This document shows positions 21,812-54,797 of a DNA stretch of 64,000 nucleotides, one piece after another. Every line of letters starts with the position of its first letter. Position 1 is the stretch's first letter. The DNA is taken from positions 2,816,001 to 2,880,000 of the forward strand of contig OZ219753.1 in the NCBI GenBank assembly GCA_964291315.2, in the 5' to 3' direction. Source of the DNA: Candidatus Poribacteria bacterium. Its GTDB lineage: Bacteria; Poribacteria; WGA-4E; WGA-3G. The translations under genes were made by a program, and so were the position numbers. Under the pieces are notes generated by a model that had not been told where the DNA came from, did not search any database, and saw only the letters and a program-made list of their open reading frames with translations.

Positions 21812-22690
21812 ATGCTTAACTTGCGTTCACTGGATTCCCTAATTGATTTGGCGTTTGAGGAAGACATCGGCAGTGGCGACATAACGACAGAGGCAACGGT
21901 GTCGGCTGTGCAGGAAGGTATGGGAGCGCTACTTGCGAAGAGTGCCGGTGTTGTTGCAGGATTGCCGGTGGCTGAGCGAGTCTTCGCGAGATTGGATTCG
22001 GCGTTGAAATTTCGCTCATGCGTCAGTGATGGGGATTCGGTAAATGCGGGCACCGTGATTGCGGAAGTAAAAGGCAGCGCTAAAAGTATTCTGATCGGTG
22101 AGCGGACTGCGCTTAATTTTCTACAACGGCTTTCAGGGATAGCGACGCTCACAGCACGTTTTGTGGAAGCAGTGGCTGACTATGATACTAAGATAGTGGA
22201 CACTCGGAAGACGGCGGCTGGCTGGCGCGTTGTTGAAAAATATGCTGTCCGTGTTGGTGGCGGTTCCAACCACCGGTTTGGTCTTTACGATGGGGTGCTC
22301 ATCAAGGATAATCACATTGTTGCTGCGGGCGGCGTTCACAACGCCGTGCGGCGTGCGCGGGAAACTGCGCCGCATACAGCGAAAATAGAGGTCGAAGTTG
22401 AGACAGTTGAACAGGTAGACAAAGCTCTTCGAGCGGGTGCGGACATTTTGCTGCTTGACAATATGCCTGCGAGTCTCATACGAGGTGTTGTTCAAGAGGT
22501 GGGCGATCAGGCGATGACTGAGGCGTCGGGTGGCATTACGCTTGAAGGCGTACAGGCTGTCGCAGCGACAGGCGTGGCTCTGATTTCTGTTGGTGCGCTA
22601 ACGCACTCGGCAATGCCGATGGATATTAGTCTAACTTTGACGCTCGTTGAAGCGTGCCGCAAGGTCTCGGATAAGAAACGACGTACATGA
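21812..22690 (+). CDS. nadC: Nicotinate-nucleotide diphosphorylase (carboxylating)
   Basis: [46 protein letters not shown]. Confidence 0.96.
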
Positions 22691-22713
22691 AAACTACGTG
22701 TGAAAGGAAGATT

Positions 22714-23634
22714 ATGGCAACCACTGCATTTAAGAAAATTGAGCCTACGACGACAAAACTGGGTTGGATTGGCACTGGCGTAATGGGTCGTTGGATGTGT
22801 CAACATCTCATGGATTTAGGATATGGGATGACGTTGTATAACCGGACGCGGGCGAAAGCGGATCCGCTTCTGGCGGCAGGTGCGACGTGGGCAGATTCGC
22901 CGAAAGATGTTGCTGCGGTTTCGGATATTGTGTTCACAATTGTCGGATTTCCGCCTGATGTTCGAGAGGTGTATCTTGGAGATAATAGCATCTTGAAAGG
23001 GGCAAAACCCGGAAGCATCATCGTTGATATGACGACTACGGAGCCCTCTCTCGCTCAGGAAATTTACGCGGCAGCAGAGACACAGGGTGTTGCATCGGTA
23101 GATGCTCCGGTGTCGGGAGGTGATGTGGGTGCTCGGGAGGCGCGCCTCTCGATCATGGTTGGTGGAGACGAGGCTGCTGTACAAGCGGTGATGCCTCTCT
23201 TTACAGCGATGGGTAAAAATATTGTCTACCAAGGCGGTGCGGGCGCGGGACAGCACACTAAGATGTGTAACCAAATTACGATTTCGGGGACAATGATCGG
23301 GGTGTGTGAAGGGTTGATTTACGGTCATAAAGCGGGTCTAGATCTTGAGACGATGCTGTCATCAATTAGCGGGGGAGCTGCCGCCTGTTGGTCTTTGGAT
23401 AACTTGGCGCCCCGGGTTCTACAACGGAATTTTGATCCCGGTTTCTTTGTAGAGCATTTCATCAAAGATATGAGCATCGCTCTGGATGAATCTCGGAAAA
23501 TGAACCTCAGCCTACCGGGATTGGCGTTGGTGCATCAACTTTACACGGCCGTACAAGCACAAGGACACGGCAGGTTGGGTACACAAGCGCTGATGTTGGC
23601 GCTGGAACAGATGTCGGGCGTGGAAACGGACTAA
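22714..23634 (+). CDS. NAD(P)-dependent oxidoreductase, 3-hydroxyisobutyrate dehydrogenase / tartronate semialdehyde reductase family
   Basis: [26 protein letters not shown]. Confidence 0.92.
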
Positions 23635-23964: not shown

Positions 23965-26727
23965 CTATTTGTCAGACGATTTTAACTCTCCCCACCGCGT
24001 TGTGAGTTTGCCACTCGCAGAGACATCCCCACGCAGATGCGTCGTCCGGAGCGTCGTACGCACCCCGTCCATAGAGACGTCTTCTATCTGGTAGTAATAC
24101 ACCACGTTGGGTTTCGCAGTGGTATCTGTGTAGGTATAGACGTGCTTCTCGGAGGTCGTGCCGTGCCCCGCAATCAGACCCTCGGCGTTGATAGCCTTGA
24201 ACTCGCCCGTCTTGCTCTCGCTGCGCAGGATATTGAACCCGGCGTTGTTGAGCTCGGACTGCGTTACCCAGCTAATCTCAACGTGTCCTGTCGAGACGTT
24301 GCGCACCGGGCGGAAACTTGAGAGTGAGACGGGTAGCGGTCCGCCGAGACGGTAGCCGGGGGTGCCGATATCGCTTCGCTGCCCGTAGAAGGTGAGCGAG
24401 GCACCTGCCAGATCCGAGTGTCGCCAAGAGGCTTCCATCGTGCCATTATCTGCATTGTGCGGTCCAGAACCCTCTGTCATGTCGTTGAACACACCGCCAT
24501 AGACCCGCACAATAGAGGTACGCAGCTCACCGCTTCCGGGCAGATCCCACATCTTCGTGCGTGAAGTGCCGTCTACCTCAAGGTTGCCGGCTGCGTCCAT
24601 AAGCATCGGATCGCCACCGCTGACCTTCGCCCGCAGCTCCAAATAGAAACCTTCCGCATTCAGCAGCTGCCGACCAGACGTTGTCAACCTGAGATCGCTG
24701 CGGTGCTTCTCCAACAAGTTGTAGACATAGTTATCCGCAACATCGTTCGCAGCGCTGCTTGAGACGAGCAGCAGCGTCTGATTCGGCGGGATATACGCCC
24801 CTGCCTTAAAGGTGAGGGTTGCGTCGACATACAAGCTGCCTGCCTGGTTGCGGATATCTAACTCCCACCCTTCAAGGTTCACCGTATCGGTCATAGAGCT
24901 GTTGTAGAGCTCTATCCACTGCACCAAGTTCGAGCGCGGACCCGCATCATACATAATCTCGCTGATGCTCACTTTGCCATCAAACGTGTAGTCGCCCTCG
25001 GAGACGTTGTTCACCGCCATGTTCGGATACCCCGGCGTGCCGGGGGAGGTCGCTGTGTCAAGAGATTTGTCTTTGCCGCGGTCGTAGCCAGTGCCGATGA
25101 ACCCGAACGACTGCCAGTCGTCTTTGTGGACGCGGTTCGCACGAGACTTCGCGCCGTACATGCCCTGCGAATTGATCTGCACACCCCGACCGAACGACAT
25201 ACTTGTAGAGGCGAAGGTATTCATGCTACCGAAGTCCTCAACGTCTCCCGGGGACATCCATCCCACGAACGGCCAGACATCTGTATTGAACTTCCTATCT
25301 TCCATCCGTGTAAAGAAACCGTTGCCCGCATAGTCTATGACATTATCCGCCGTTTTCAGCTTATCTTTTGCGTTGCGCAGCAGGATCAGGAACTTGCCTT
25401 CAGCGGGAAGTTTTAGGTCTTCCGCAACCACATACTTGTGCGTGGCACCCGTGTTGACATCCGATTCGTCCAAGAGGCTCTGAAGGTTCGTACCCCCAGC
25501 GAACTTAATACTTCGCCCCGGGTCTCGGTTGTAGACCACTAGATACTCGCCCGGCTTCATACTGTATTTCGGCAGCACCGCGAGGCTGGTGTCCGTGAAG
25601 TTGGCATCCCCGGACTGGTGATACCCGCTACCGTCCGTCATCATCTTGCCCATCACCAGGCTTAGCTGATAGTTTTCTATATTCACGGAGGCATCCGAGG
25701 CACTATCGCTATTATAGAACAGCTCTATCCAGTCCAAGTTCTCATCTGAAGAGTCGTTTCGCACCTCGTTGATGATAATACCGGTAGGTGAGATAGCCGC
25801 AGGTTTCATATCAAACTTGACGACAGAGGGACCGCCCACAGGCACGTGAACGCTGCCTGGGGACCCGATGTACTGACCCTCGATGTTAATCGAGCCGACG
25901 GAAGCCTCCCAGGACCCGGGGTCATCGCCCTCTCCGAGTCCCTTCAGTTTTCCGTTTTCATAGGCATACGCCTTGCCTGTGGCATCCAGTTCGATCTTCC
26001 GATACATAGAGACCATGGGTGTGGGAGCTATGCCCTTCTCTGTGTTGCCGTCGGTATCGCCGTTGCTGCCTTTCAGCTGCCACTTCCGCCCAAAACGATC
26101 GACCGTGTGTACACGATCCAGAACGACATACTTTTTCAGGACGCCACTTTCAGTAACCTCAAACATCTCCCCTGCGCGATACGCTAGACGGTCAGGAAAA
26201 TATCTAGTATTGTGCATGCCGATGCCATCGTTCTTTTTCATAGCGCCTTGGCTGTAGAATTCAATCCACTGCGGATTATCTGCGGTATAGGCTCTTGAAG
26301 GGTTATCTTCTCCCCACATTATTTCGGTGATAACGATTTGGTGCTTGAGCTTCATCGCCTCCTCCGCTGTCGGATTAGGTTTCAAGGTATACTCATTGCC
26401 CTCGGTATCAAACTGAGCTTGTGTTGGCGCTCGCACTGTAATGATAATCCCATGACCGCCTTCGAGTCTATTCCGTAGGTCACCGAAAGGTTGGCTATAA
26501 TTGTTGGCCGTTGTGCCGTTTAACTTCCCTGTTGCTGCGTCCGTGATGCCGTTATTAGCAGAGACCGTTGGATCCGCGGTAGATTTCGCCCAGATAAAAA
26601 ACGTTTTGGCTTTAAGGAGGTGGGTTTGGGTACCTCCCGTCACAATGTTAAGCGCGGAAGCCTGGGGTGTTGCGAAGAGACACACAAGCCCTAATACTAC
26701 CAAAACTCTCATTTTATTCCATAACAT
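23965..26727 (-). CDS. Large secreted protein with three lamin-tail-like domains, paralog 1
   Basis: Signal peptide; IVITEIMW..QWIEFY, IIINEV..DWIELF and VSISEIMY..QWIELYN, each closed by (G/S)(S/T)PG; PLPVSLSSF module; GKLTTRWGELK tail. Confidence 0.85.
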   Translation of the reverse strand: MLWNKMRVLVVLGLVCLFATPQASALNIVTGGTQTHLLKAKTFFIWAKSTADPTVSANNGITDAATGKLNGTTANNYSQPFGDLRNRLEGGHGIIITVRAPTQAQFDTEGNEYTLKPNPTAEEAMKLKHQIVITEIMWGEDNPSRAYTADNPQWIEFYSQGAMKKNDGIGMHNTRYFPDRLAYRAGEMFEVTESGVLKKYVVLDRVHTVDRFGRKWQLKGSNGDTDGNTEKGIAPTPMVSMYRKIELDATGKAYAYENGKLKGLGEGDDPGSWEASVGSINIEGQYIGSPGSVHVPVGGPSVVKFDMKPAAISPTGIIINEVRNDSSDENLDWIELFYNSDSASDASVNIENYQLSLVMGKMMTDGSGYHQSGDANFTDTSLAVLPKYSMKPGEYLVVYNRDPGRSIKFAGGTNLQSLLDESDVNTGATHKYVVAEDLKLPAEGKFLILLRNAKDKLKTADNVIDYAGNGFFTRMEDRKFNTDVWPFVGWMSPGDVEDFGSMNTFASTSMSFGRGVQINSQGMYGAKSRANRVHKDDWQSFGFIGTGYDRGKDKSLDTATSPGTPGYPNMAVNNVSEGDYTFDGKVSISEIMYDAGPRSNLVQWIELYNSSMTDTVNLEGWELDIRNQAGSLYVDATLTFKAGAYIPPNQTLLLVSSSAANDVADNYVYNLLEKHRSDLRLTTSGRQLLNAEGFYLELRAKVSGGDPMLMDAAGNLEVDGTSRTKMWDLPGSGELRTSIVRVYGGVFNDMTEGSGPHNADNGTMEASWRHSDLAGASLTFYGQRSDIGTPGYRLGGPLPVSLSSFRPVRNVSTGHVEISWVTQSELNNAGFNILRSESKTGEFKAINAEGLIAGHGTTSEKHVYTYTDTTAKPNVVYYYQIEDVSMDGVRTTLRTTHLRGDVSASGKLTTRWGELKSSDK

Positions 26728-26757
26728 TATTTTTGTTCTCCTCTGTTATTGGTGATG

Positions 26758-26797
26758 CAAGCTTGACACATATTCGCATAAATATGTATCAAGCTTG
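26758..26797. promoter_or_regulatory. Intergenic stem-loop between the two lamin-tail genes
   Basis: CAAGCTTGA-C-ACATATT / AATATGT-A-TCAAGCTTG: 17-bp arms with one mismatch. Confidence 0.55.
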
Positions 26798-26815
26798 TGT
26801 TATATGTTGTGTCTG

Positions 26816-29689
26816 CTATTTGTCAGACGATTTGAGCTCTCCCCACCGCGTTGTGAGCTTACCCCTCGCAGAGACATCGCCCCGCAGATGCGTCGTCCGT
26901 AACGTTGTGCGCACCCCGTCCATAGAGACGTCTTCTATCTGGTAGTAATAGACCACATTCGGCTTCGCAGCGGTATCTGTGTAGCGATACACATGCTTCT
27001 CGGAGGTCGTGCCGTGCCCTGCAATTAGACCCTTGGTGTTGATAACCGAAAACTCACCCGTCTTGCTCTCGCTGCGCAGGATATTAAACCCGGCGTTGTT
27101 GAGTTCGGACTGCGTTACCCACGTAATCTCAACGTGGCCTGTCGAGGCATCGCGCACAGGCCGGAAACTCGAGAGTGAAACCGGCAACGGACCACCGACC
27201 CGATAGCCGGGGGAACTGATATCGTCGCGGTGTCCGTAGTACGTCAGCGAGGCACCTGCTAGGTTTGACTGCCGCCAAGAGGCTTGCATCAACCCATTAT
27301 CGGGATTCGAACCGCCTTTATACGTGCGGGTGATAGACATCCGCATCTCACCGCGCTCGGGCAGATCCCAGGCGTGGGTGCGCACCGTCCCCGCTATCTC
27401 AAGGTTGCCGGCTGTGTCCACAGCTATCAACGCCGAGTCACCGGCTTTGTTGACCTTCGCACGCAGCTCCAGATGGAAGCCCGCCGCACTCAGCAGCTGC
27501 CGACCCTGTATTGTCAAACCCAGGGCAGTCCCGTGCCTCTCCTGCAAGTTATAGATGTAGTTCTCCGCTACATCGTTCGCACCATTGTTCGACACCAGCA
27601 GCAACGTCTGATTCGGCGGCAGATACGTGTCCGCAGCAAATGTGAACTTCGCATTGACATACGAACCTGTCACTGTCCGCTCGTTGCGGACCTCTAACTC
27701 CCAGCCCGCAAGGTCTATGGTCTCGCTCATAGAGCTGTTGTAGAGCTCTATCCACTGCACCAAGTTTGAGCGGGGACCCGCATCATACATAATCTCGCTG
27801 ATGCTCACTTTGCCATCGAAGGCGTAGTCATCGTCAGTCGATGCGGTGTTTTTGTCATCCGCGATCATACTCACCCCTATGTTCGGGTACCCGGGCGTGC
27901 CAGGGGCACTCGCTGTGTCAACCGTTTTATCGCGCCCGCGATCGTAGCCGGCACCCATGAAACCGAACGTCATCCAATCGTCTTTGTGAACGCGGTTCGC
28001 ACGAGACTTCGCCCAATACATGCCCTTCGAGCTCAACTGGGCCCCCCGACCGAACGACATACTCGTAGAGGCGAAGGTGTTCATGCTACCGAAGTCCTCA
28101 ACGTCTCCCGGGGCAGACCACGCTACAAACGGCCACACACTTGTATCGAACTTCTTATCTTCCATGCGCTTGAAGAAACCGTTGCCGACGTAGTCCTTGA
28201 CGTTTGACGGCTTGCCAACGTCATCGGCATGATTCCGTGTGCGCAGCAGGATCAGGAACTTGCCTTCAGCGGGCAGCTTCAGGTCTGTCTCGACCACATA
28301 CTTGTGCGTGGCACCCTTTTTGATGTGCGTTTTCGCAGAGAGATCCTGAAGTTTTTCACCGCCAGCAAACGTAACACTCTTCCCAGGCTCCCGGTTATAG
28401 ATCACGACATACTCGCCCGGTTTCATCTCGTATTTCGGCAGCACCGCGAGTTTGGTCTCCGTGAAGTTGGCATCGCCCGACTCGTGATAGCTCCCATCAG
28501 CCTTCATCTTCCCCATCACCAGGCTCAACTTATAGTTCTCTATATTCACGGGCTTGGCTTCGGGATCATCACTGTTATAGAAGAGCTCTATCCAATCCAA
28601 GTTCGCACTTGAGGGATCGTTACGCACCTCGTTGATGATGATGCCTGTAGGAGAGATAGAGGCGGGGGTCATATTGAACAAAGCTGCACCCGGTCCACCC
28701 GGATTAAGCGAGTGAACGTCCCCCGGACTCGCTATGTAATTACCCCTGAGGATATACTTACCCTTATATTTAGATGCCTCCCAGGAGCTTGCTTCGTTGC
28801 CTTCCCCGAGGCCCTTCGGTTTTCCGTTTTCATAGGCATACGCCATCCGCGTGGCATCCAGCTCGATCTTGCGATACATGGAGACCATCGCATTGGCTGG
28901 ATCGCTTGTATCCCTACCATCCGTAGGTGTATCAGTGAGATCCGCTTCGGTAATGGTAGAGGGATCCGCGTTGTGGTCACCATCGGCATCGGCAGTATCG
29001 CCATCCGCACCTTTCAGCTCCCACGGGTTACCAAAACGATCGATCGTGGCGACACGATCCAAAACAACAAACTTGCGGTCAGCTGTGCCCGCATTATTAT
29101 CAGCGTCCCACATGAACGTCTCGCCCGGTTCGGGGACAACGGCTTTGTCTAAACGGGGATGCGTGTGCCATCTGATATAATCGTTGGCTTTCAAAGCGGC
29201 GCCAGCGTTATAGAGTTCAAACCATTGGGCACCGGTTCTGCGCGGGAAATCCGTTCCCCAATTCACCTCGGTGATGACGATGCGGTGCTTCATCTTCATC
29301 AGATCCGCATCTGAGGCGTCGGCTTTCAGGGTATGGTTGGCAGCGCCATCGGTGGTAATTTCGGCTGCTAGCGGCACCCGCATTGAGATTGTGATTGCGC
29401 CGCCGCGCACCAGTAAATCCTTCAGGTCTGGCAAATCAGGGATCGCCCGCGCATGTACAGTGTGCTCTATACGCTGGTTAGCGAGTTTATCCCTGTACGC
29501 TGAAAACTCGGGATAAACGAGACCGTAACCCTTCATAATGATCGTAAAGCCCTTGGATTTCTTGAGTTCAGTCCACAGCGTATAGCTAGCCCGGCCATCC
29601 CCTGGGCCAGTGACACCAAAAGCGTGTGTGGTTGCAAAAATAGATACGAGTGCTAAGACTACGAAAATTCTAATTTTATTCCATAACAT
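26816..29689 (-). CDS. Large secreted protein with three lamin-tail-like domains, paralog 2
   Basis: Same architecture as 23965-26727 with a near-identical C-terminal ~120 aa. Start placed at MLWNK by paralogy; the ORF extends to 29698. Confidence 0.85.
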   Translation of the reverse strand: MLWNKIRIFVVLALVSIFATTHAFGVTGPGDGRASYTLWTELKKSKGFTIIMKGYGLVYPEFSAYRDKLANQRIEHTVHARAIPDLPDLKDLLVRGGAITISMRVPLAAEITTDGAANHTLKADASDADLMKMKHRIVITEVNWGTDFPRRTGAQWFELYNAGAALKANDYIRWHTHPRLDKAVVPEPGETFMWDADNNAGTADRKFVVLDRVATIDRFGNPWELKGADGDTADADGDHNADPSTITEADLTDTPTDGRDTSDPANAMVSMYRKIELDATRMAYAYENGKPKGLGEGNEASSWEASKYKGKYILRGNYIASPGDVHSLNPGGPGAALFNMTPASISPTGIIINEVRNDPSSANLDWIELFYNSDDPEAKPVNIENYKLSLVMGKMKADGSYHESGDANFTETKLAVLPKYEMKPGEYVVIYNREPGKSVTFAGGEKLQDLSAKTHIKKGATHKYVVETDLKLPAEGKFLILLRTRNHADDVGKPSNVKDYVGNGFFKRMEDKKFDTSVWPFVAWSAPGDVEDFGSMNTFASTSMSFGRGAQLSSKGMYWAKSRANRVHKDDWMTFGFMGAGYDRGRDKTVDTASAPGTPGYPNIGVSMIADDKNTASTDDDYAFDGKVSISEIMYDAGPRSNLVQWIELYNSSMSETIDLAGWELEVRNERTVTGSYVNAKFTFAADTYLPPNQTLLLVSNNGANDVAENYIYNLQERHGTALGLTIQGRQLLSAAGFHLELRAKVNKAGDSALIAVDTAGNLEIAGTVRTHAWDLPERGEMRMSITRTYKGGSNPDNGLMQASWRQSNLAGASLTYYGHRDDISSPGYRVGGPLPVSLSSFRPVRDASTGHVEITWVTQSELNNAGFNILRSESKTGEFSVINTKGLIAGHGTTSEKHVYRYTDTAAKPNVVYYYQIEDVSMDGVRTTLRTTHLRGDVSARGKLTTRWGELKSSDK

Positions 29690-29763
29690 TACGTGCATTC
29701 TCCTCTGTTATTGATATTGGTTAAATATAGAGACGATGAGAGATGACTGCCCTCATGGTCTGT

Positions 29764-30876
29764 TTATGCTGCGGAGGGTTCGAGTCGCATCGGCATAATA
29801 ACTGAAATGTAGTCCTCCGAGCCGACGGGTTTAAGGATGACGGGGTTAAACTCGCCTGAAAATTCTATTGAGACAGACTCGGTTTCTATGTGAGATAAGG
29901 CTTCTGTGAGCAGGCGTGCGTCAAAACCGATTCGGACGCTTCCAGTGCCTGACTCAACAGGGAGTGTCTCGTGTGCTTCCCCTAATGTTGGTGTCTTGGT
30001 AGAGACTCGTATCTCTTCTGGATCAATCTCTAAGGAGATGGAGAAGTTCTTGGGGTTTGAGAGCACGGAGACGCGTCGAGTTGCGCGTAAAATGCGATCT
30101 TTTGCGACGACTGTTCTGCCTTCGCTCATCTCGGGGATGATTTTCTCATAATTTGGATAATCCCCCTCGACGAGGCGTGCTGTGAGTGTGGCGTTGTCGT
30201 CTTTAAAGAGAATCTGATTTTCGGAGAGGGAAACGTCTACTTCCCCGGATTTCTGAAAGGTCCGCTCGATCTCCTTGACGGCTTTCAAGGGGACGATGAA
30301 TCCCTTAGTTTCGCCTGGGGAGTTGAGCGGTTCGCAATATGCGACGGCAAGTCTGTTGCCGTCGGTAGCGACGACTTCTGTTTTGTGTTCGAGGAAGTTG
30401 AAGTAGAGTCCGTTTAGATAGTATCGGACTTCCTCTGTGGATGCTGCATATTCAGTTTTCTGCAGGAGGCTGCGTAGCGTCTCTCCGCCGACAGAGACAG
30501 GATCGCCTTCTATAGTGGGGAGTTGTGGAAACTCTTCGTCAGACATCCCGATAATTTTGTAGACACCATCTCCACAGGTGAGCTCGACACGGTCGTTTGC
30601 GGTTGTGGCGAGGTTTATTGGTTCATCGTTTGGGAGTTCTTTGACGATGTCGCCTAATTTTTTGGCGGAGACCGTAATTGCCCCGTCCTCTGTGATTGTT
30701 CCTTCAACCTTGATTCTGATACCGATTTCAAGGTCGGTTGCGACGCATTCAATGGTGTTCTCTTGGGCGTGAATGAGGACGTTTGAGAGAATAGGCAAGG
30801 TATTCCGTCCGCTTGCAACGCCTTGCAGTACCTGTAGTGCGTATAGGAGGTCGTCTCTTTCAAAAGTTAGTTCCAT
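29764..30876 (-). CDS. dnaN: DNA polymerase III subunit beta (sliding clamp), downstream copy
   Basis: TLPILSNVL, ATDLE, EEFP, RYYLNG, ATDGNRL, EGDYPNY, MPMRL; 370 aa. Confidence 0.96.
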   Translation of the reverse strand: MELTFERDDLLYALQVLQGVASGRNTLPILSNVLIHAQENTIECVATDLEIGIRIKVEGTITEDGAITVSAKKLGDIVKELPNDEPINLATTANDRVELTCGDGVYKIIGMSDEEFPQLPTIEGDPVSVGGETLRSLLQKTEYAASTEEVRYYLNGLYFNFLEHKTEVVATDGNRLAVAYCEPLNSPGETKGFIVPLKAVKEIERTFQKSGEVDVSLSENQILFKDDNATLTARLVEGDYPNYEKIIPEMSEGRTVVAKDRILRATRRVSVLSNPKNFSISLEIDPEEIRVSTKTPTLGEAHETLPVESGTGSVRIGFDARLLTEALSHIETESVSIEFSGEFNPVILKPVGSEDYISVIMPMRLEPSAA

Positions 30877-30932
30877 TCCAAGTTCTCCTTCTTCTTTTAT
30901 CTGATAAAAAGCTTAACAAGTTCCTCTCATGT

Positions 30933-30961
30933 AGTATAACATATTATTGTAGATATATCAA
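30933..30961 (-). promoter_or_regulatory. Promoter of the downstream dnaN copy
   Basis: TTGATA-N17-TATACT with an extended -10 TG; homologous to 32457-32485. Confidence 0.6.
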
Positions 30962-31093
30962 AAAAAAACGAATTTTGATCAGAACTGAAAAATATATGCT
31001 TATATCTGTTCTACTCTACAATCGCTTGAAGAAGGCCGGCCCGATTGCGATCGGGAAGTGCGGCTATCTAACACCGCAATCCCCAGGGTCTGT

Positions 31094-32206
31094 TTATGCG
31101 GCGGAGGGTTCGAGTCGCATCGGCATGATAAGCGAGAGGTAGTCCTCCGAGCCGACGGGTTTGAGGATGACCGGGTTCAACTCGCCTGAAAATTCTATTG
31201 AGACAGATTCGGTTTCTATGTGAGATAACGCTTCTGTGAGCAGGCGTGCGTCAAAACCGATTCGGACGCTTCCAGTGCCTGACTCAACAGGGAGTGTCTC
31301 GTGTGCTTCCCCTAATGTTGGTGTCTTTGCAGAGACTCGTATTTCTTCTGTATCCATCTCTAAGGAGATGGAGAAGTTCTTCGGGTTTGAGAGCACGGAG
31401 ACGCGTCGAGTTGCGCGTAAAATGCGATCTTTTGCGACGACTGTTCTGCCTTCACTCATCTCGGGGATGATTTTCTCATAATTTGGATAATCCCCCTCGA
31501 CGAGGCGTGCTGTGAGTGTGGCGTTGTCGTCTTTAAAGAGAATCTGATTTTCGGAGAGGGAAACGTCTACTTCCCCGGATTTCTGAAAGGTCCGCTCGAT
31601 CTCCTTGACGGCTTTCAAGGGGACGATGAATCCCTTAGTTTCGCCTGGGGGGTTGAGCGGTTCGCAATGTGCAAGGGCAAGCCGCTTGCCGTCGGTAGCG
31701 ACGACTTCTGTTTTGTGTTCGAGGAAGTTGAAGTAGAGTCCGTTTAGATAGTATCGGACTTCCTCTGTGGATGCTGCATATTCAGTTTTCTGTAGGAGGC
31801 CGCGCAGCGTCTCTCCGCCGACAGAGACAGGGTCGCCTTCTATAGTGGGGAGTTGTGGAAACTCTTCGTCAGACATCCCGATAATTTTGTAGACACCATC
31901 TCCACAGGTGAGCTCGACGCGGTCGTTTGCGGTTGTGGCGAGGTTTATTGGTTCATCGTTTGGGAGTTCTTTGACGATGTCGCCTAATTTTTTGGCGGAG
32001 ACCGTAATTGCCCCGTCCTCTGTGATTGTGCCTTCAACCTTGATTCTAATACCGATTTCAAGGTCGGTTGCGACGCATTCAATGGTGTTCTCTTCGGCGT
32101 GAATGAGGACGTTTGAGAGAATAGGCAAGGTATTCCGTCCGCTTGCAACGCCTTGCAGTACCTGTAGTGCGTATAGGAGGTCGTCTCTTTCAAAAGTTAG
32201 TTCCAT
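31094..32206 (-). CDS. dnaN: DNA polymerase III subunit beta (sliding clamp), upstream copy
   Basis: 370 aa; 358/370 identical to the adjacent copy; ATDGKRL, MPMRL. Confidence 0.96.
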   Translation of the reverse strand: MELTFERDDLLYALQVLQGVASGRNTLPILSNVLIHAEENTIECVATDLEIGIRIKVEGTITEDGAITVSAKKLGDIVKELPNDEPINLATTANDRVELTCGDGVYKIIGMSDEEFPQLPTIEGDPVSVGGETLRGLLQKTEYAASTEEVRYYLNGLYFNFLEHKTEVVATDGKRLALAHCEPLNPPGETKGFIVPLKAVKEIERTFQKSGEVDVSLSENQILFKDDNATLTARLVEGDYPNYEKIIPEMSEGRTVVAKDRILRATRRVSVLSNPKNFSISLEMDTEEIRVSAKTPTLGEAHETLPVESGTGSVRIGFDARLLTEALSHIETESVSIEFSGELNPVILKPVGSEDYLSLIMPMRLEPSAA

Positions 32207-32286
32207 TCCAAGTTCTCCTTCTTCTTTTATCTATATTATGGGCGTGATTTTCTTGAAGCACAAGGTGCCTCTGGATTAAAGCTTCT

Positions 32287-32386
32287 ATTGCTACTATTCA
32301 TTCTATTAGAGAGTGCAGGAACAGTGTCAATGAACAATTGCTACTATTCATTCTATTAGAGAGTGCAGGAACAGTGTCAATGAACA
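32287..32386. repeat. Perfect 2 x 50-bp tandem repeat upstream of dnaN
   Basis: ATTGCTACTATTCATTCTATTAGAGAGTGCAGGAACAGTGTCAATGAACA twice, with no spacer. Confidence 0.95.
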
Positions 32387-32456
32387 GAGGAATCGGCATC
32401 GCATTTCATCGATAGATCGTCTGCCTGATAAAAACCTTGACAAACTCCTCTTATGT

Positions 32457-32485
32457 AGTATAGCATATTATTATAGATATAGCAA
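32457..32485 (-). promoter_or_regulatory. Promoter of the upstream dnaN copy
   Basis: TTGCTA-N17-TATACT with an extended -10 TG. Confidence 0.55.
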
Positions 32486-32663
32486 AAGAAATTAGAACTT
32501 ACAAAACGTACGCTCATATCTACACTACAATCCTAAGTTTTCTAATCAAGATGTACACCAAAACAATTTAGCTTTAGGCACTGTGGGTCTATGAATTTCT
32601 GTGGCGAGAGATAGACACCTCGGGGTTACAAAGGTTAAATGTCATCGTTATTTTCCTATAAAA

Positions 32664-40090: not shown

Positions 40091-43000
40091 CTACAGAGTG
40101 TCTCGTAAAAAACGTGCGGTATGAGATGTTTGGTTGTTCGCGACCTGTTCTGGTGTTCCGATTGCAACGACTTCGCCTCCGTTTTTGCTTCCCTCTGGTC
40201 CCAGGTCGATGATCCAGTCGGCGGATTTGATAACGTCAATGTTGTGTTCAACAGCGATAATGGTATTGCCGGTGTCGACGAGTCGGTTCAGCACTTTGAG
40301 GAGTTTCTGGATGTCATCGAAGTGGAGGCCTGTTGTGGGTTCGTCCATGATGTAGAGGGTTGATCTTTTGTGCTGTCGTGCCAGCTCTTTTGCGAGTTTC
40401 ACGCGTTGTGCCTCGCCCCCGGAAAGGGTTGTTGCTGACTGTCCGAGTTGGATGTAGCCCAATCCGACATCTGCCAACATCTGGAGTGTCCGGCAGATCG
40501 GCGAATTTTCAGTGAAGAAATTGAGTGCCTCATCTACTGTCATATCCAAGACTTCGGCAATATTTTTGCCTTTATAACGGATTTCAAGTGTTTCGTCGTT
40601 GTAGCCTGTACTGTTACATGCTTCACACGGCATCCACACGTCGGGGAGGAAATGCATCTCGACGCGGTTAAAACGTTGCCCCTCACACACATAGCACTGT
40701 CCGGCGGCGAGGTTGAAACTGAAGAATTCCATGTTAAACCCGCGTGTCTTCGCGTCGTGTTGTTCGGCAAAGAGCGCGCGGATCTTCGTGAACAGGTCGG
40801 TATAGGTTGCTGGGTTTGAACGCGGTGTTTCACCGATTGCTTTCTGGTCTACATTGATGAGGCGTTTGATATGGCTAATTCCTCGGATGCTCTTATATTC
40901 GGGTAAACCGTAGTCGTTATAGATAGGTTCGCGTTGTCCGTCAGTCGTATAGTAGCTGTAGCGTAGTTCTGCTCGTTCGGCTGTTTTGATGGATTTGCGA
41001 GTTTCAAGGGCAGGTTTTAGCGTGCCTTCAACGAGCGAGCTTTTCCCGCATCCTGATACGCCGGTTACACATGTAAGCGTTCCCAATGGAATTTTAACGT
41101 TAATGTCTTTAAGATTGTTGGTTCTTGCGCCGTATATTGCTAGTTCTTTGCCTGTCCCTTTGCGTCGTGTTTTCGGTATTGGAATTTTTACTTGGTTGGA
41201 GAGATAAGCTTGCGTCAAGGATTTAAGAGAGGTTTTTTGATTTTGCTCTTGTATTGTGGGGGGTTCCTGAGTGAAGGTATCGGGTGTACCGACGGCGGTA
41301 ATTTCGCCACCGTTTTTACCTGCGCGCGGTCCGAAGTCGATCACGTGATCGGAGGCTAGTATTGTGTCTCGGTCGTGTTCGACGACGAGGACGCTGTTAC
41401 CGATATTGCGGAGTTGTTTAAGCGCGGCGATGAGACGTTGCTGATCGCGTGGGTGTAAGCCGATGCTTGGTTCGTCGAGGATATAGGTTACGCCTGTGAG
41501 TCCTGTGCCGAGTTGGCTTGCGAGGTGGATTCTACGCATTTCGCCCCCGGAGAGTGTCGGTGCCCCGCGGTCGAGTGCGAGGTAACCGAGTCCGATATCT
41601 TCTAGAAATTGGAGTCGCGCTTGGATTTGCGCGAGGACTTCGGCTTCAAACTCAGGAGAGGTATGCAGGTGAAGTGCGGGGTGCGTGGCTCTTGAAATTG
41701 AGACACTTGTTGCGCTCTGTTGGTTTCTCTGTTTGGTTTCTACGTCCATGTCGGCGATCTGTGCTTCAATCTGCTTTAGGCGTGCGTCCAAGGATTCAAT
41801 GATCTCGGTGATTGACAACGTCATCAATTCGGCGATGGTTGTTCCTTGAAACATAACGCATCTGGGGAAAGGTTTCAGACGTGTGCCTTGACACTCGTTG
41901 CACAGATTGTAGGGTGGGTAAGTGTTTCGCCCGCGTCCATTACAGGAGTCGCAAGCCCCTATTTTGTTGTTAAAAGAGAAGTGCCGTGGTGTGAGTTGTC
42001 CGAAGTTGCTGCCACAATTAGGACACATTGCGTGTTCGCTAAAGAAGTGGCGTGCTGATTTTCTGCTGTGCTTGTTTTCCTCGATAAGCACGAACCCGCC
42101 GCTCTGGCGTAGTGCTAATTCGATTGCCTCCATAAAACGGCTCTTTTCTTCATCGACAAGTTCGACACGGTCGATGACAATAGAGATTTCGTGGTGAATG
42201 CCGCGGCTCAGTGTCGGTACTTCGTCGAGTCGGTGGATCTCACCGTCGATTTGGATGCGAACGAATCCTGCTTTTTGTAACCGTCTGAATACGTTGGTAT
42301 AGTCTTCATGTCCGTCTATACCGTAAGCGGCTTCATTGACGTTGATGTCAATAATCTTGCCTGCTGTTTCCCGTGTCTCACTTGTGGGAATAAGTATAAA
42401 GTTTGTGAGCGGTGCGAGGACATCGACTCTCTGTTTGTGTGCGATCTGAAAAATCCTGCTTGTTATTTCTTCAGCGGTCTGTGAACAGACGGGTTTGCGG
42501 CAATCTGGGCAGTGTGGTTTACCCCATTTAGCGTAAAGCGTGCGTAGTCCGTCATGTATCTCCGTGATAGTTGCCACGGTTGAGCGTGGATTTTGACCTG
42601 CGTTGGCGTGTGAGATTGCGATGGCGGGTGAGAGTCCCTCAATTTTTGAGACTTTAGGTTTCCCTTTCTGTCCTATAAATTGGCGTGCATAGGTGCTGAG
42701 CGTTTCGATGTAGCGTCGTTGGCCTTCAGCGTAAATCGTGTCGAGTGCGAGGGATGTCTTGCCAGAGCCGCTGACTCCTGTCAGTGTTGTCATTTTTCGA
42801 TGGGGGATATCGACGTTCACGTTTTTGAGGTTATTTTCTGATGCCCCTTGTACAGTGATGGTTGTGGTTCTCTGTTGTTTCTGCTCAAAGAGGGATGCGA
42901 GTTCGGGTTCAATGAGTCGTTGCTTTGCATCACGCCAGATGTCGAAGTCTCCTCGTAGTGCTTGTCCTGTGTAAGATTCGGGTATTTCGGCAACTTGTTC

Positions 43001-45838
43001 AGGCGTACCGATGGCGACGATTGAGCCTCCAGCAACGCCGCCTTCTGGTCCTAAGTCGATAAGGTAATCTGCGGAACTAATCACTTCAAGATTGTGTTCT
43101 ACGACAACCACAGTGTTGCCGTCATCTACGAGTCGGTGTAGGATTGTCAGGAGTTTATTCACGTCATCAAAATGTAATCCGGTTGTGGGTTCATCGAGGA
43201 TATAAAGCGTTTTTCCGGTTCCTCGTTTAGAGAGTTCTCTTGAAAGTTTGATGCGTTGTGCTTCGCCGCCGGAGAGTGTGGGTGCGGGTTGTCCGAGTTT
43301 AATGTAATCTAGACCGACATCGTGAAGGAGTTTCAATCCCCGGGCGATTTTGGGGATATCGGCGAAATGTGCTAGGGCGGTATCGATATCCATTTCTAGG
43401 ACTTCGGCAATGTTTTTGCCTTTATATTTGATAGCGAGGGTTTCGGTGTTGAAGCGTTTTCCGTTGCACACTTCACACTCAACCCAGACATCAGAGAGGA
43501 GTCCCATATCGACTTTTTTTGCGCCGTTGCCGCGGCATGCTTCGCATCTGCCGCCGGTGACGTTGAAGCTAAACCGTCCTGGTTTATAGCCTCTCAGCTT
43601 TGCGTCGGGCAAGCCGGCGTATAGCGACCGAATTGGATCGAAGACCTTTGTATAGGTTGCGGCATTAGACCGCGGTGTGCGTCCAATTGGTGCCATGTTA
43701 ATGTTAATAATTTTGTCGAGGATGTGGGAGACAGGCACGTTCTGTTTTTTGATGACTCCTTGGATTTTATCATGGTGCCCTGGTACTGTCTTTGCCTTCA
43801 TGAGATCTCGGGCGAGAGCGCTGTAAAGGATGTCGTGAATTAAGGAGCTCTTTCCGGAACCGCTCACCCCTGTCACGCAGCAGAGCGTGCCGATGGGTAT
43901 TTTAGGGTTGATTCCTTTGAGGTTGTTTTGGCGTGCGTTATAGACTTGTATCCACTTTTCTCCTGTTGAACGGCGTGTTTCTGGTTGCACGATCGTTTTG
44001 TCGCCTCGAAGGTATTGTGCGGTGAGCGTATTGCTCTCTTTCATGAATTGGGCAGGGGTTCCCATGTCGGTCACTTTTCCGCCCTTAATACCTGCTCCGG
44101 GCCCGAAATCGACTATCCAGTCGGCTACGAGCATTGTCGCTTCGTCATGTTCGACGACGATGACGGTGTTTCCTTGGTTGCGGAGGTTTATGAGGGTTGT
44201 GAGGAGTCCTGCGTGGTCCCGAGGGTGTAGTCCGATGCTTGGTTCATCGAGAACGTAGGTGACATCGCGTAGTCCTGCTCCTACCTGACTGGCGAGTCGG
44301 ATGCGTTGTGCTTCGCCGCCGGAGAGGGTTGGTGCGGACCGCGCCAGGGTTAGGTAGCCTAGTCCGACCTTTATGAGGAATCCGAGTCTGCCGCGGATCT
44401 CCTTAAGGAGCTCTTGGGCGATGAATGTCTCGTGTTCGGGGAGCGACAAGGTTTCGAAAAATTCGGAGGCGCATTGGATAGACATCTCTAGAATATCGGT
44501 TATAGGTGCATTATTGAGCGTCACCGCTTTGATCCAGGCGTTCAGTCGGGTTCCCTCACAGGATCGGCAGGGCATTTTTACAAAATAGTCAGGAAACTGC
44601 TCTTCGTCGTTTTCATCGTTGTTTTCGGCGCGGTGTTTTTGTTCTGCAGCGGGTATGATACCGCGAAACTGGATACGGTGTCGTCGTTTTCGCTTTTGGG
44701 ATGTGCTTGTCTGTGGTGTGATGATTGTAAGGATGTCGTCGCCTGTGCCGTATAGAATTGCCTGCTGTTGTTCGGTAGTGAGGTCTTTCCACGGTGTTGT
44801 GACATCGAATTCGAGGTGTTTTGCGAGTGCTTCTGTTAGCGATTTTTCGGTGACACGGTTTCGTTTATTTAGGGGTCCCCACAGACGGATGGCTCCTTTC
44901 ATAATGGAGCGTGTATTGTCTGAGATAATTAGCTCCGGTAAAATTCCCATTCGTGTGCCTAAGCCACTGCAATCGTTACACATTCCATCGGGGTTGTTGA
45001 AGGAGAAGTGTCGGGGTTCGGGCTTCACGTAACTAACCTGACAGGCTGAACAGCTGTAGTGTTCACTAAACAGTAAGTCATTTTCTGCGGGCATGAATGT
45101 GGCGTTCCGATTTTCGGTTGGAACGATATGGACGAGCATACTGCCGTTTCCGTGCAACAGTGCGGCGTTTACGGCTTCGGTGATGCGAGGCTCAATGTCG
45201 TCTTTAATGATAATCCGATCGATGATAATGTCGATATCGTGGCGTTGGTTGCGACTGAGGACGAAGCCTGGGTGCAGTTCATGTATTTCGCTATCGATGC
45301 GTAAACGTGCAACGCCGGCATTTCTTAAATCCTCAATTTCTTTTTCGTGTGCGCCGCGGGATCTTCGCGCAAAGGGGGCTAAGATGACAAATCTTGTGCG
45401 TTTCGGGTAGTTAAGCAGGGTTTTGACAATGTCTGAGGTTGTTTGTGAGCCGACTTCTCCGCCGCATGTAGGGCAGTGGAATTGTCCCACGCGGGCGTAG
45501 AGGACGCGCAGGTAGTCATAGATCTCGGTTACTGTTGCAACTGTGGAACGTGGGTTGTGTCCTGTTGAGCCTTGATTAATAGCAATAGAGGGAGATAAAC
45601 CAATAATTTCGTCTACATCAGGCTTCCTGAGTTGCCCCAGAAATTGCCGTGCATAGGCCGATAGAGATTCTATATAGCGGCGCTGTCCTTCCGCGTAGAC
45701 GGTGTCAATTGCCAGTGAAGACTTGCCGGAACCGCTAACGCCCGTAAAGACGATGAGCTTATCTTTTGGAAGTTGGATGTCGATGTTTCTGAGGTTGTGT
45801 TCTCGCGCACCTTGTACATGAATTGACTCTTCTGTCAT
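40091..45838 (-). CDS. uvrA: Excinuclease ABC subunit A, double-length (two fused UvrA units)
   Basis: Four Walker A motifs (GVSGSGKSS x2, [18 protein letters not shown]), four LSGGE motifs, two [10 protein letters not shown] motifs. ATG at 45838 after GGGAG; the ORF extends to 45904. Confidence 0.95.
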
Positions 45839-45907
45839 CGCAGAGCTCCCAATGGTTGTTTGAGTTGCAGGTTTTTGTGCGTGTGCCTGTATTTTTTCGC
45901 GCATCTG

Positions 45908-51597: not shown

Positions 51598-54500
51598 TTA
51601 CACTGCGGCTGAATCTGAGTCTTGGAAGATCGGGGAAAGGTAGATGGGATCGGCGGGGTTACGGAAGAGAATGTGCCATTTTTCTGCGAATTCTTTTTTA
51701 TCTATGCCCTCTCTGCGGCGGAGAACCTGAAAGTCTGTTCTTGAGATGACAAAGGAATCCATTTGGACGTGTTCGCCGCGGAAACGTTCGTAAGAGAGGT
51801 TGCGCAGTCTTTTAAAAAGGGTAAGTTTTGAGTTATGTTGGTTGATGGCCTCATGCACCATGCCATGTGGTTCTATGAAGACGATGCGTTGTTTGACTCC
51901 TTGCAGGATCCAAAGAATAAAATCGGGATAGAATCCTTCGTTTTCATAAAAGCCGACTCCTTTGCCGCGGCTCTGGTTGCGTAACAAGTAAATTTCTTTC
52001 TGGGGAGTTTTTTGGTTGTATCGATAAAGGTATCTATTCAAATCTTCTATGAAATCTCTTTCGCTGTCTTCCAAAGCAGGTGGAGTAGTACGCCACAAGT
52101 TGTTTCCCATACCTGGGTTTAGAAGGGAACGGTAAAGATGCTCTTCGTTAGTTAAAAGTGGTTGATAGAGATGTTTTTCACTATAAACATTTGGGAGGTC
52201 GGTGAGTTCATCTCCATACATCCCTTCATTTTCCACAAGTCCTTTAATTTTGGAGTCAACTTCCTGTGCTTCGCTTCTCGGAACATGAACAATCCAATCA
52301 GGAAAATTGTTCTCATCCTCGGGGGTTTTACCTAAATGGTGTAATCGAATCCTCTCATCGTTCCAGCGTTTTTGAATGATGCTGTAGTATTTATCGATGT
52401 ATTTTCGGAGGAGCGTGAGGACTAATTCCTCTAAACGTCCAAGTTCTACTACTGATTTCGGTAAGACTTCGGATTCATCCGTGACAGTAAGTTGGTAGAC
52501 AGGGTCATTCGGATTGAGGATCTCTCGGAGGATAGTAATATCAAAAATGAGATTATGGTATCCTCTTTCGTGTTTGTAGGCAATAAGTTTCAGGTAAATT
52601 TTTTCCCAATCTACAAGTGCTAAGCTTGGTTCTGGAATGCAACGCGGGATTGATCCTTCAGCGCGTTCAGTGTGGATACCACGTTGTGAGCTGCTTCCCA
52701 CGATGTCAACCCTTTGAGTTGTGTGGGTGATAATTGTGTCTTTGAGAACTTTAAGGGGTTCGCATCGTCCTTTTGCCCCTTCGTGGTAAGGGAGAGCTTT
52801 CGGCAGAAAGAGTCCTTTATCAATGTAGTCGTCCTTTCGTCTGATTTGAATTGTCAGTTGGACAGGTTCTTCGTATGATACGCCCTCACGCAGGAGGTAA
52901 TCTCGGAATTGCGTCATGAAGTTGGCGCGGACGGCAAAGATGTTTAACGTTTCCAATAGCGATATGTGCGGTGGGTGTTTCCCGTCGAGAGCGGTGCTGC
53001 GTTTAAGACTCCTGTGTCTGCCACGGAGGCGGACCCCTCTTCCGAAGAGCTGGATAATTTGAGAACCTTCTTGTCTGCCGATATTGAGGAGTCCCATCGT
53101 AGTGACGCGCCAGCTGTCCCAGCCCTCAATAAACTTTTTTGCGCCGATCAGTATATTTATTGGGCTGTCGGGGGCGTTGATGTCAGCGAAAAGACTTTCG
53201 GTCAGCGCGTCTTCTGATTCGATGATGACTCCTGCGGCATCCGTATCAACGAGTTTTTTGAAGGCAGCGGTATCTCCGATGTAGATAAGCCCAAACTTGT
53301 GTGTGCCGTGTGTTGTTTTCAGAGCGATCTCGCCCCGTGCGTTTTGAACATCTTGCAAGTGCAAGGTCCCGCTGTGGTTGGTATGGAAGACCTCTTTGAG
53401 GATGCCGCGATAGATGTGTTCAGCGGTTTCGCTGAACGTTTTGAGGTAATTGAGCCGGGCGTGGAAGATATCCGTTCCCGTCTCGTCGGATAACCCGGAA
53501 TTGCCGTTGAGAATTCTCTCAATGTTGCGGATTGTCCAGTTTTCGTGATTCTTTAGGAAACGGTGCAGAAAACGGATGACGTTCAGAACGTCTGAGCGAC
53601 TGCGCCCGCCCTCTGTGTAGACGACATTGCCTGAGACTCTGCTGCCCACGAACGCCCATAAGGGTGCGTCTAATTCATAAGTGCGGACAGCTTCAGTGTT
53701 CTCTTTGAAATATCGGCGTTGTTCGTAGAAGGTGAGGAGGTTGGCTAAAAGGAGCAGCTCGGTTTGTGTGCCTTCGTCGTGTTTAACGTTGAGGATACGG
53801 AAGTTTTTGCCGTATCCGTCTTCATAAAAATACCTGTAGGAGTAGTCAAAGGCGATGGCTTTTCCGTATTCGTCGACGAGGGCGGGGTTTTTGGCTGCTG
53901 CGAGTGCTTGGCCGAAGGTCGCGCTATATTCGAAGGTAAAGCCTGTTTTCCCCAGTTTATCGCGGATGTCGCGCCAGACTTCGCCGCCGCTGCCTTTATG
54001 TCCTTCATCTACGAAGATGAGGTTGTTGCCTTCAAACGCCTCAACTTCGACGCTTTCGCCTTCGCCTGTTTTCTCTTCTACTAATTTTGTGATTTCGATG
54101 ACCTGCAAGGTATCCCGGTTATTTGAGAACCGTCCGCCTTCAGCTTTAAAGCGTTCGCCTCGGATGTCGGAGTTGGCAAGTTCGCGGAGGTGCTGTTCGC
54201 TCAATCCTTCGTTGGGTGTGATAAGGACGACGTGGTCTAACTTTTCTCGGCAATAGTGAAGGAACTGATGGTAGTTGATGTGCATGATGAGGGTTTTGCC
54301 GGCACCAGTCGCCATCCAGAAGGCGAGTTTCTCGAGATCAACGGCTGCGAATTCTGTATCGGTTGGGTCGCCGGGGGCCCTCGCCTCGTTGCGCTGTTGG
54401 ACAAAAACGTTGAGTTGGTGCAAGAGTTGTTCGGGTCTATTGAACTTCCAATCTAAGAAAATTTCTGTGTAGAGCAGTGCGAGGTATTGAAAATAGCGGA

Positions 54501-54780
54501 GGACAATCGGCTCTGAACGTGTGTCGTTTATAGCGGAGAGGTGTCGTTTGATGTTGGCATCGTAAGTGGGGAGGGCTTGTTCAACAATTGAATCTGGTAC
54601 AGCACACGTCATAAGCAGCTCGCAGACGGCGGAACGTCCATTTGCGTTGAAACCCTCGTCGATGTCTTTCACGGCGTTGAGGAGGTGCCGCGTGCTCTTA
54701 TATTGGAAGTGGCTGTTGAGCCATGCGTGTAGGGTAAGATGGGCGCTAAGTGCGCGGTGTGGTGTGTTTCTTCTGGGCAT
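51598..54780 (-). CDS. res: Type III restriction enzyme Res subunit (SF2 helicase plus PD-(D/E)xK nuclease)
   Basis: MATGAGKT, DEGH, YSATF, EGWD, QLFGRGVR, FYPDFILW...IEPHG; downstream of mod. Confidence 0.88.
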   Translation of the reverse strand: MPRRNTPHRALSAHLTLHAWLNSHFQYKSTRHLLNAVKDIDEGFNANGRSAVCELLMTCAVPDSIVEQALPTYDANIKRHLSAINDTRSEPIVLRYFQYLALLYTEIFLDWKFNRPEQLLHQLNVFVQQRNEARAPGDPTDTEFAAVDLEKLAFWMATGAGKTLIMHINYHQFLHYCREKLDHVVLITPNEGLSEQHLRELANSDIRGERFKAEGGRFSNNRDTLQVIEITKLVEEKTGEGESVEVEAFEGNNLIFVDEGHKGSGGEVWRDIRDKLGKTGFTFEYSATFGQALAAAKNPALVDEYGKAIAFDYSYRYFYEDGYGKNFRILNVKHDEGTQTELLLLANLLTFYEQRRYFKENTEAVRTYELDAPLWAFVGSRVSGNVVYTEGGRSRSDVLNVIRFLHRFLKNHENWTIRNIERILNGNSGLSDETGTDIFHARLNYLKTFSETAEHIYRGILKEVFHTNHSGTLHLQDVQNARGEIALKTTHGTHKFGLIYIGDTAAFKKLVDTDAAGVIIESEDALTESLFADINAPDSPINILIGAKKFIEGWDSWRVTTMGLLNIGRQEGSQIIQLFGRGVRLRGRHRSLKRSTALDGKHPPHISLLETLNIFAVRANFMTQFRDYLLREGVSYEEPVQLTIQIRRKDDYIDKGLFLPKALPYHEGAKGRCEPLKVLKDTIITHTTQRVDIVGSSSQRGIHTERAEGSIPRCIPEPSLALVDWEKIYLKLIAYKHERGYHNLIFDITILREILNPNDPVYQLTVTDESEVLPKSVVELGRLEELVLTLLRKYIDKYYSIIQKRWNDERIRLHHLGKTPEDENNFPDWIVHVPRSEAQEVDSKIKGLVENEGMYGDELTDLPNVYSEKHLYQPLLTNEEHLYRSLLNPGMGNNLWRTTPPALEDSERDFIEDLNRYLYRYNQKTPQKEIYLLRNQSRGKGVGFYENEGFYPDFILWILQGVKQRIVFIEPHGMVHEAINQHNSKLTLFKRLRNLSYERFRGEHVQMDSFVISRTDFQVLRRREGIDKKEFAEKWHILFRNPADPIYLSPIFQDSDSAAV

Positions 54781-54797
54781 AGCAGCTCGTTTCGGAT

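Follow-up and report, generated by a model that had tools for sequence, protein, structure and literature searches.

The 64,000-nt stretch of Candidatus Poribacteria DNA analyzed here (positions 2,816,001 to 2,880,000 of contig OZ219753.1, assembly GCA_964291315.2; hereinafter, the window) encodes two adjacent, nearly identical dnaN genes for the beta sliding clamp, the upstream copy UP (31094..32206) and the downstream copy DN (29764..30876), both on the minus strand. Comparison with the rest of the genome and with related genomes indicates that the pair arose by a genuine duplication, confined to this species lineage, of what was the sole beta-clamp gene of the genome. UP, the parent copy, occupies the ancestral locus and retains the consensus clamp-binding pocket; DN, the daughter copy, is located within an insertion and carries three derived pocket substitutions. 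The interpretation that we favor, with about even confidence, is that DN is a young pocket-variant clamp encoded next to the canonical clamp, in a lineage in which variant clamps are otherwise always retained.

UP and DN are arranged head to tail, with UP transcribed first and with a start-to-start spacing of 1330 nt; both are intact open reading frames (ORFs) of 370 codons. Each protein matches pfam00712, pfam02767 and pfam02768 (PF00712, PF02767 and PF02768), in this order, with E-values between 1e-20 and 1e-33, and the two have the same TIGR00663 score, 281.3 bits against the equivalog cut-off of 137.65. An AlphaFold (AF2) model of DN has a predicted local distance difference test score (pLDDT) of 91.4, and a Foldseek search started with this model retrieves the solved clamps of Bacillus subtilis, Escherichia coli and Pseudomonas aeruginosa with template modeling (TM) scores of 0.88-0.94. 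Thus, by domain content and profile score, and in the case of DN also by predicted fold, both proteins are complete bacterial beta sliding clamps (DnaN). The two genes differ at 33 of 1113 nucleotides and the proteins at 12 of 370 residues (96.8% identity), namely, positions 38, 136, 174, 178, 180, 186, 284, 286, 293, 343, 357 and 359. An earlier note, made from the sequence alone, had described two intact clamps of 370 residues, each with its own ribosome-binding site (RBS) and a homologous promoter, and had listed their differences; the ORFs, the Pfam and TIGR00663 matches and the promoter sites described below bear out this description, and a recount returned exactly the same 12 residues. 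The repeated unit, which extends from the RBS region to 13 nt beyond the stop codon, comprises 1157 nt with 96.9% identity. A scan of metagenome contigs with DN identified no close relative (the best match shows 36% identity) and hence no independent instance of the tandem.

The binding pocket was taken as the 18 residues listed in a review (PMC11139829) and mapped onto the two proteins through an alignment to E. coli K-12 DnaN. In this alignment, positions 174, 343 and 359 correspond to H175, V344 and V360, respectively, as the motif alignment in the earlier note had indicated, and positions 178, 180 and 357, there called close neighbors, correspond to V179, S181 and A358 and are neighbors in sequence. 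Three of the 12 differing sites belong to the 18 pocket residues (p=0.017 under a uniform model and p=0.005 when weighted by column entropy), and so do three of the 10 changes derived in DN (p=0.0098 and 0.003, respectively); all these p-values are post hoc. The three pocket differences (N174, F343 and V359) are all derived in DN. UP matches the consensus of its orthologs (group A, described below) at 18 of the 18 pocket positions, and 14 of the 19 group A orthologs are identical to UP at all 18, whereas DN matches the consensus at 15. At the equivalents of V344 and V360, all 19 group A orthologs, which are separated by synonymous distances (dS) above 1, contain leucine, and DN contains phenylalanine and valine. 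None of the 12 differences falls on the positions aligned to E. coli I272 and L273, the named dimer-interface residues, so that mixed UP/DN rings appear plausible if both genes are expressed.

The divergence was analyzed through parsimony counts and Nei-Gojobori (NG86) distances, and the differences were polarized with the four nearest orthologs as the reference. Ten non-synonymous changes (Q38, S136, N174, V178, Y180, P286, T293, F343, I357 and V359, with the polarity of position 357 ambiguous) are derived in DN and two (P186 and M284) in UP, an asymmetry with a two-sided binomial p=0.039; the terminal branches in the tree are 0.0089 for UP and 0.026 for DN. The earlier note had proposed that the cleft was diversifying, and this holds in so far as three of the 12 differences affect pocket residues; the diversification is one-sided, given that DN changed while UP keeps the consensus. 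The ratio of non-synonymous to synonymous divergence (dN/dS) between UP and DN is 0.175, compared to 0.03-0.09 for pairs of orthologs. By these ratios, constraint is relaxed about three-fold and still clearly purifying.

The differences between the two genes are distributed in patches. Nine of the 21 synonymous differences are located within 6 nt of a non-synonymous one (2.5 expected, p=0.0004), and dS is 0.28 within three codons of the replacements (0.24 when only the neighboring codons are counted) vs 0.047 elsewhere; as the differences themselves were used to delimit the islands, this contrast serves for description only. Two tight patches, with synonymous and non-synonymous changes mixed, contain 6 nucleotide differences at nt 522-538 of the gene and 8 differences at nt 1029-1080. 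This pattern suggests that the rest of the gene was homogenized by gene conversion or else that the patches were imported, and the duplication is probably older than the 3% divergence implies. The copies are lineage-specific, in agreement with the proposal of a recent duplication; the probably greater age is suggested by the patchy differences within the gene and by the identity of only about 84-87% in the noncoding promoter region.

The regulatory regions are likewise duplicated and have diverged further than the coding sequences. Both copies are preceded by a sigma-70-like promoter-like site on the minus strand, TTGCTA and TATACT with a 17-nt spacing for UP (32457..32485) and TTGATA and TATACT with the same spacing for DN (30933..30961), in each case with a TG before the -10 hexamer. 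These sites are embedded in a homologous 67-nt element (32425-32491 for UP and 30901-30967 for DN) with 87% identity between the two copies; the element of UP is conserved upstream of dnaN in relatives. In a local alignment, the homology continues for about 55 nt upstream of the promoter element, with insertions and deletions, and UP and DN do not differ at all between the RBS and the ATG codon. A 189-nt leader on the minus strand (32236..32424) is unique to UP and has no equivalent in DN; it is partly alignable with the leader found in the relatives. This leader contains a perfect tandem repeat of two 50-nt units (32287-32386), with a TTGACA hexamer in each unit. The Logan contigs of both public sequencing runs examined contain one such unit only (with 32286 joined to 32337), which could reflect either collapse of the repeat in the k-mer assembly or a real length polymorphism. 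The spacer between the copies (30968..31080, minus strand) consists of a part with weak homology to the sequence that precedes the UP promoter (30968-31023) and a junction-specific part of 57 nt (31024-31080). We looked for a terminator-like site on the coding (minus) strand of this spacer and found none; therefore, read-through from UP into DN is possible.

The window is part of a 3.26-Mb contig of a four-contig, 95%-complete, 4.4-Mb Poribacteria metagenome-assembled genome (MAG), the closest named records of which are Candidatus Poribacteria MAGs. The junction between the copies was examined in the Logan contigs, that is, separate k-mer assemblies of the two public runs. In one run (X1, record 5, which covers 30873-31207 with one mismatch), a UP-type 3' end is followed by the unique spacer and then by a DN-type promoter and RBS; in the other (X2, record 11, 31012-31238), the 3' end of UP is joined to the same unique spacer. 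Since the MAG may have been assembled from these very runs, the contigs are a check on the assembler and not an independent sample; depth derived from the contigs is unusable as copy number, and parts of the stretch have no cover.

UP and DN are the only dnaN matches in the genome, as judged from tblastn and from a search with PF00712, and dnaA is located on another contig (C1), so that the genomic context is indeed unusual, as had been noticed from the sequence. In other families of the order, dnaA adjoins dnaN in 11 of the 16 loci examined, whereas in the same genus, none of the 38 loci has dnaA beside dnaN within the 1.5-4 kb flanks that were fetched; therefore, the classical dnaA-dnaN linkage has been lost genus-wide and not only in this genome. 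The upstream synteny, namely, a gene for a DUF6785 membrane protein, the promoter and the leader, is common to UP and the single ortholog of the relatives. On the 3' side, in three relatives, the gene directly following dnaN encodes a 313-aa protein and is orthologous to 22687-23634 in the window. In the window, DN and two genes on the minus strand that encode lamin-tail-domain (LTD) proteins of 920 and 960 aa (23965..29698, identified through Pfam LTD matches) intervene between UP and this ortholog. Given that in the relatives dnaN directly abuts it, DN together with the two LTD genes constitutes a lineage-specific insertion of about 7 kb, an arrangement that identifies UP as the parent copy and DN as the daughter.

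The relatives put the pair into a broader context. All 24 same-genus genomes examined contain at least two clamp matches (2-6 per genome at E<=1e-3, some of them fragments), compared to the two matches, both A-type, in the present genome; this count addresses the copy number in this and related genomes that the earlier note had asked for. In a tree of 60 sequences, three paralogous groups are found inside the genus clade, which has a Shimodaira-Hasegawa-like approximate likelihood ratio test (SH-aLRT) support of 100. Group A clamps are 74-84% identical to the query and are present in one copy per genome; group B clamps are 65-70% identical, and group C clamps 53-63% identical. UP and DN are sister sequences in this tree (SH-aLRT 100), and the present genome is the only one among the 65 genus genomes searched with two A-type copies; together, these two observations substantiate the lineage-specificity of the duplication. 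An adjacent dnaN pair is found in 21 of the 64 other genus genomes, in all cases with members 64-70% identical to the query. The older pairs placed in the tree (in the genomes G002, G008 and G019) are B-type and split into two well-supported subclades, and therefore represent old duplications.

The pockets of the group B and C paralogs are altered as well, including the equivalents of E. coli positions 175 and 344. All 13 group B sequences differ from group A at the equivalents of G174 and V344, and 10 of the 13 contain tryptophan at the equivalent of R176. The changes in B and C include G174 to M, A or S, R176 to W or Q, and M362 to V, H or C; some of these proteins replace M362 or R365. The B paralogs of the two sampled relatives from the sister clade (G007 and G016) contain phenylalanine at the equivalent of V344, as does DN. 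The pockets of B and C are far more extensively remodeled than that of DN, and pocket change is what sets the clamp paralogs apart in this genus. Group C clamps have an unusual domain architecture: a single frame of about 570-620 aa combines an extracytoplasmic function (ECF) sigma factor (Sigma70_r2 and Sigma70_r4) with a full three-domain clamp that has an altered pocket. Such sigma-clamp fusions are encoded in same-genus genomes other than that of the window (loci L052, L054, L056, L058, L060, L062, L065, L067 and L069). The architecture is represented in at least 120 protein clusters; in the few for which a source is named, the annotation reads simply 'DNA polymerase III subunit beta'. We did not find this fusion described in the literature: among the papers listed in a search for it, none combines the sigma and the clamp terms, and the main text of two ECF classification papers does not contain the words 'clamp', 'dnaN' or 'polymerase III', although supplements may hold it. 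Similarly, for Poribacteria clamp paralogs in general, no literature was found beyond a gene-content table that lists dnaN, and supplements might differ in this respect.

Groups B and C are absent from the present genome at their syntenic sites. At the C site (contig C1, around 541300-541445), no more than about 130 bp separate the flanking genes, with no clamp gene between them; at the B site (contig C4, 829737-834005), two genes encoding proteins of about 640-670 aa are found instead of a clamp gene.

Two further observations concern clamps in related genomes. In another family of the order (genome G037, locus L075), the gene order is dnaA-dnaN-dnaN, and the second copy contains methionine and alanine at the equivalents of L155 and G174. 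Weak matches to clamp domains II-III (23-26% identity, E-values of 1e-6 to 1e-11) are found in G040, G037, G031, G035 and G038 inside frames of about 390-480 aa, which may encode distant clamp-like proteins.

Several explanations of the pair other than a pocket-variant clamp deserve consideration. The source record is a MAG, the copies are 97% identical, and depth in the public runs gives no copy number, points that speak for two strain alleles of a single-copy dnaN having been stitched into a tandem by the assembler. Such an artifact is nevertheless very improbable, given that the Logan contigs join a UP-type 3' end to the unique 57-nt junction and, in X1 record 5, further to the DN-type promoter and RBS, that the leaders are unequal (by 189 nt), the promoter region has diverged with insertions and deletions and the 3' flanks differ, that the contig is 3.26 Mb long, and that 21 of the 64 other genomes of the genus, several single-contig assemblies among them, contain adjacent dnaN pairs. 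The tight patches of mixed synonymous and non-synonymous differences at nt 522-538 and 1029-1080 could alternatively be explained by import, whereby short-tract gene conversion or recombination would have transferred them to DN from a third, diverged dnaN, either a lost paralog or foreign DNA; the lineage apparently once had B and C paralogs, which are possible donors. We consider this scenario improbable: no donor tract was detected among the 57 sampled Poribacteria dnaN sequences, where even the closest candidates show 7-33 mismatched positions in each tract, and the diverged noncoding promoter region fits an older duplication with homogenization equally well. One form of the resistance or decoy setting proposed in the earlier note would be a role of DN similar to that of GriR, with protection against a clamp-targeting compound made by the organism itself. 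The dnaN paralog griR is located within the griselimycin gene cluster (PMC11621423), and griselimycin occupies the pocket that is altered in DN. In the window, however, no non-ribosomal peptide synthetase (NRPS), polyketide synthase (PKS) or other biosynthetic domains were identified in the 21 of the 45 ORFs that were scanned, including every large ORF within 10 kb; the neighbors are LTD proteins, DUF6785 and DUF4403 proteins and oxidoreductases, and a 97%-identical clamp with conservative changes would be a weak resistance allele. Self-resistance of this kind thus finds no support in the scanned ORFs and seems highly unlikely.

The main rival to the pocket-variant interpretation, which we deem the less probable of the two although a substantial minority view, is drift of a redundant copy, in which DN is a spare, maintained for dosage or neutral, and under relaxed constraint, so that the changes match the pocket by chance and leave its specificity as it was. 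The dN/dS of 0.175, about three times that of the ortholog pairs and far below 1, fits drift, and dnaN amplification alone can be adaptive, as in the griselimycin resistance of Mycobacterium smegmatis (PMC11621423). Several further observations weigh on the same side and against a selected pocket variant. With an overall dN/dS below 1, the pair gives no direct indication of positive selection. The 12 sites fall on the more variable alignment columns (mean entropy 1.61 vs 1.04, p=0.004), and almost every derived state recurs in some other clamp: nine of the 10 derived states of DN occur at the same column in another Poribacteria clamp, N174 is found in one group A ortholog, and E. coli itself contains valine at both 344 and 360. 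The changes in DN are all conservative, which is what near-neutral drift of a redundant gene would produce. DN has converged little on the B type, with 2-3 of the 10 sites matching (F343, I357 and Y180). The pocket hypothesis was framed after the data had been seen, and synonymous sites cannot be polarized reliably, given a dS of 1.1-1.4 to the outgroups. Finally, Y-family polymerases were found in none of three genomes (this one, G007 and G016), each of which encodes a single dnaE, so a clamp specific for translesion synthesis would have no obvious client; the notion of a partner-selective clamp, as put forward in the earlier note, therefore lacks its obvious candidate partners. Drift, for its part, has difficulty with three observations: at two of the pocket positions that DN has altered, all 19 orthologs share a single residue despite their separation by dS above 1; the enrichment of changes in the pocket survives the weighting by column variability; and independent point mutations leave the clustering of synonymous differences around the replacements unexplained.

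Under the pocket-variant interpretation, the evolution of the pair can be tentatively reconstructed as follows. UP, which has kept the ancestral locus, leader and pocket, most likely serves as the replicative clamp. DN lies downstream at a distance of one gene length, has a promoter of its own and a shorter leader, and is still a complete clamp that evolves under purifying selection, but it has changed three residues of the pocket for clamp-binding motifs along with three residues on the same two strands. On the simplest reading, gene conversion between the tandem copies keeps most of the coding sequence nearly identical, and four short patches with amino acid differences escape conversion, as would be expected if these differences were selected. 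The altered pocket of DN may shift the affinity for some clamp-binding partners or inhibitors, and DN would then fill the role that the older pocket-remodeled paralogs (groups B and C) play in every other genus genome examined. The mixed UP/DN rings mentioned above are plausible within the same scheme. The sequences themselves show the anatomy of the pair, the polarity of the changes, their mapping to the pocket by alignment, the patchiness and the genus setting; conversion between the copies, their upkeep through selection and a divergence in ligand binding are inferred.

A more far-reaching version of this scheme is that the genus runs an obligate multi-clamp system composed of the canonical clamp and at least one clamp with an altered pocket. 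The present genome would then have lost B and the sigma-fused C and would be re-evolving a variant from a duplicate, with selection holding the pocket patches apart against conversion, and the outcome would be an orthogonal or inhibitor-insensitive docking site, possibly in mixed rings. We regard this extended version as speculative and, on balance, doubtful.

Comparison with known duplications of clamp genes places the pair apart from each of them. Many Bacillus species possess a second dnaN, DnaN-2, the function of which is called mysterious in a review (PMC3290774); the likeness is that of a second full-length dnaN beside the canonical one. DnaN-2 has only about 40% 'sequence homology' to DnaN-1 and is therefore an old paralog, whereas UP and DN are adjacent, 97% identical (96.8% at the protein level, far from the level of about 40% identity that is typical of DnaN-2) and differ mainly at the pocket strands. 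GriR and the M. smegmatis dnaN amplification (PMC11621423) resemble the pair in that they link an additional clamp gene, or a raised clamp dosage, to the pocket as a target; the difference is that UP and DN have no biosynthetic cluster among the scanned window ORFs and that the organism is an uncultured sponge symbiont for which no inhibitor is known. The B and C paralogs of the genus are similar to DN as extra clamps that coexist with a clamp with a consensus pocket, but they are 53-70% identical to A and form separate, well-supported clades, whereas DN appears to be a fresh derivative of A.

With respect to the mode of sequence divergence, the pair resembles duplicates that undergo concerted evolution, in that the differences are clustered and the local dS is raised. 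The genes tufA and tufB, which we take to be an example of such duplicates, likewise have nearly identical coding regions beside more diverged flanks, with the remaining differences patchy. Unlike in tufA/tufB, the surviving patches in UP and DN coincide with a ligand-binding pocket, and here gene conversion is suggested by the pattern of differences between the two sequences.

The remaining genes of the window include several of separate interest. At 29601-29750, the 5' end of the second LTD gene together with the upstream 150 nt recurs at four other sites in the genome with 85-94% identity, and this recurrence suggests that the LTD proteins comprise a spread paralogous family of secreted proteins. 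Farther from dnaN, a 1937-aa ORF on the minus strand (40091-45904) contains the UvrA_inter domain twice, along with UvrA_DNA-bind and ABC ATPase domains, and thus encodes a double-length UvrA-like protein. The region 51598-57905, also on the minus strand, contains a gene for a type III restriction-like helicase (ResIII) that adjoins a gene for a 1035-aa DNA methylase (N6_N4_Mtase).

According to the reviews PMC11139829 and PMC11621423, the clamp pocket is strongly conserved and can hardly be altered without the clamp losing its function, and for this reason it is pursued as a drug target. The genus keeps several clamps that differ in this single docking pocket. The near-isogenic pair described here, with 12 differences three of which are in the pocket, amounts to a natural experiment on the pocket changes that are tolerated and on partner choice. 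It also illustrates that apparently 'recent' duplicates can hide older duplications that are masked by conversion. If the genus indeed depends on an obligate multi-clamp system, UP and DN would represent the first steps of clamp specialization caught in the act.

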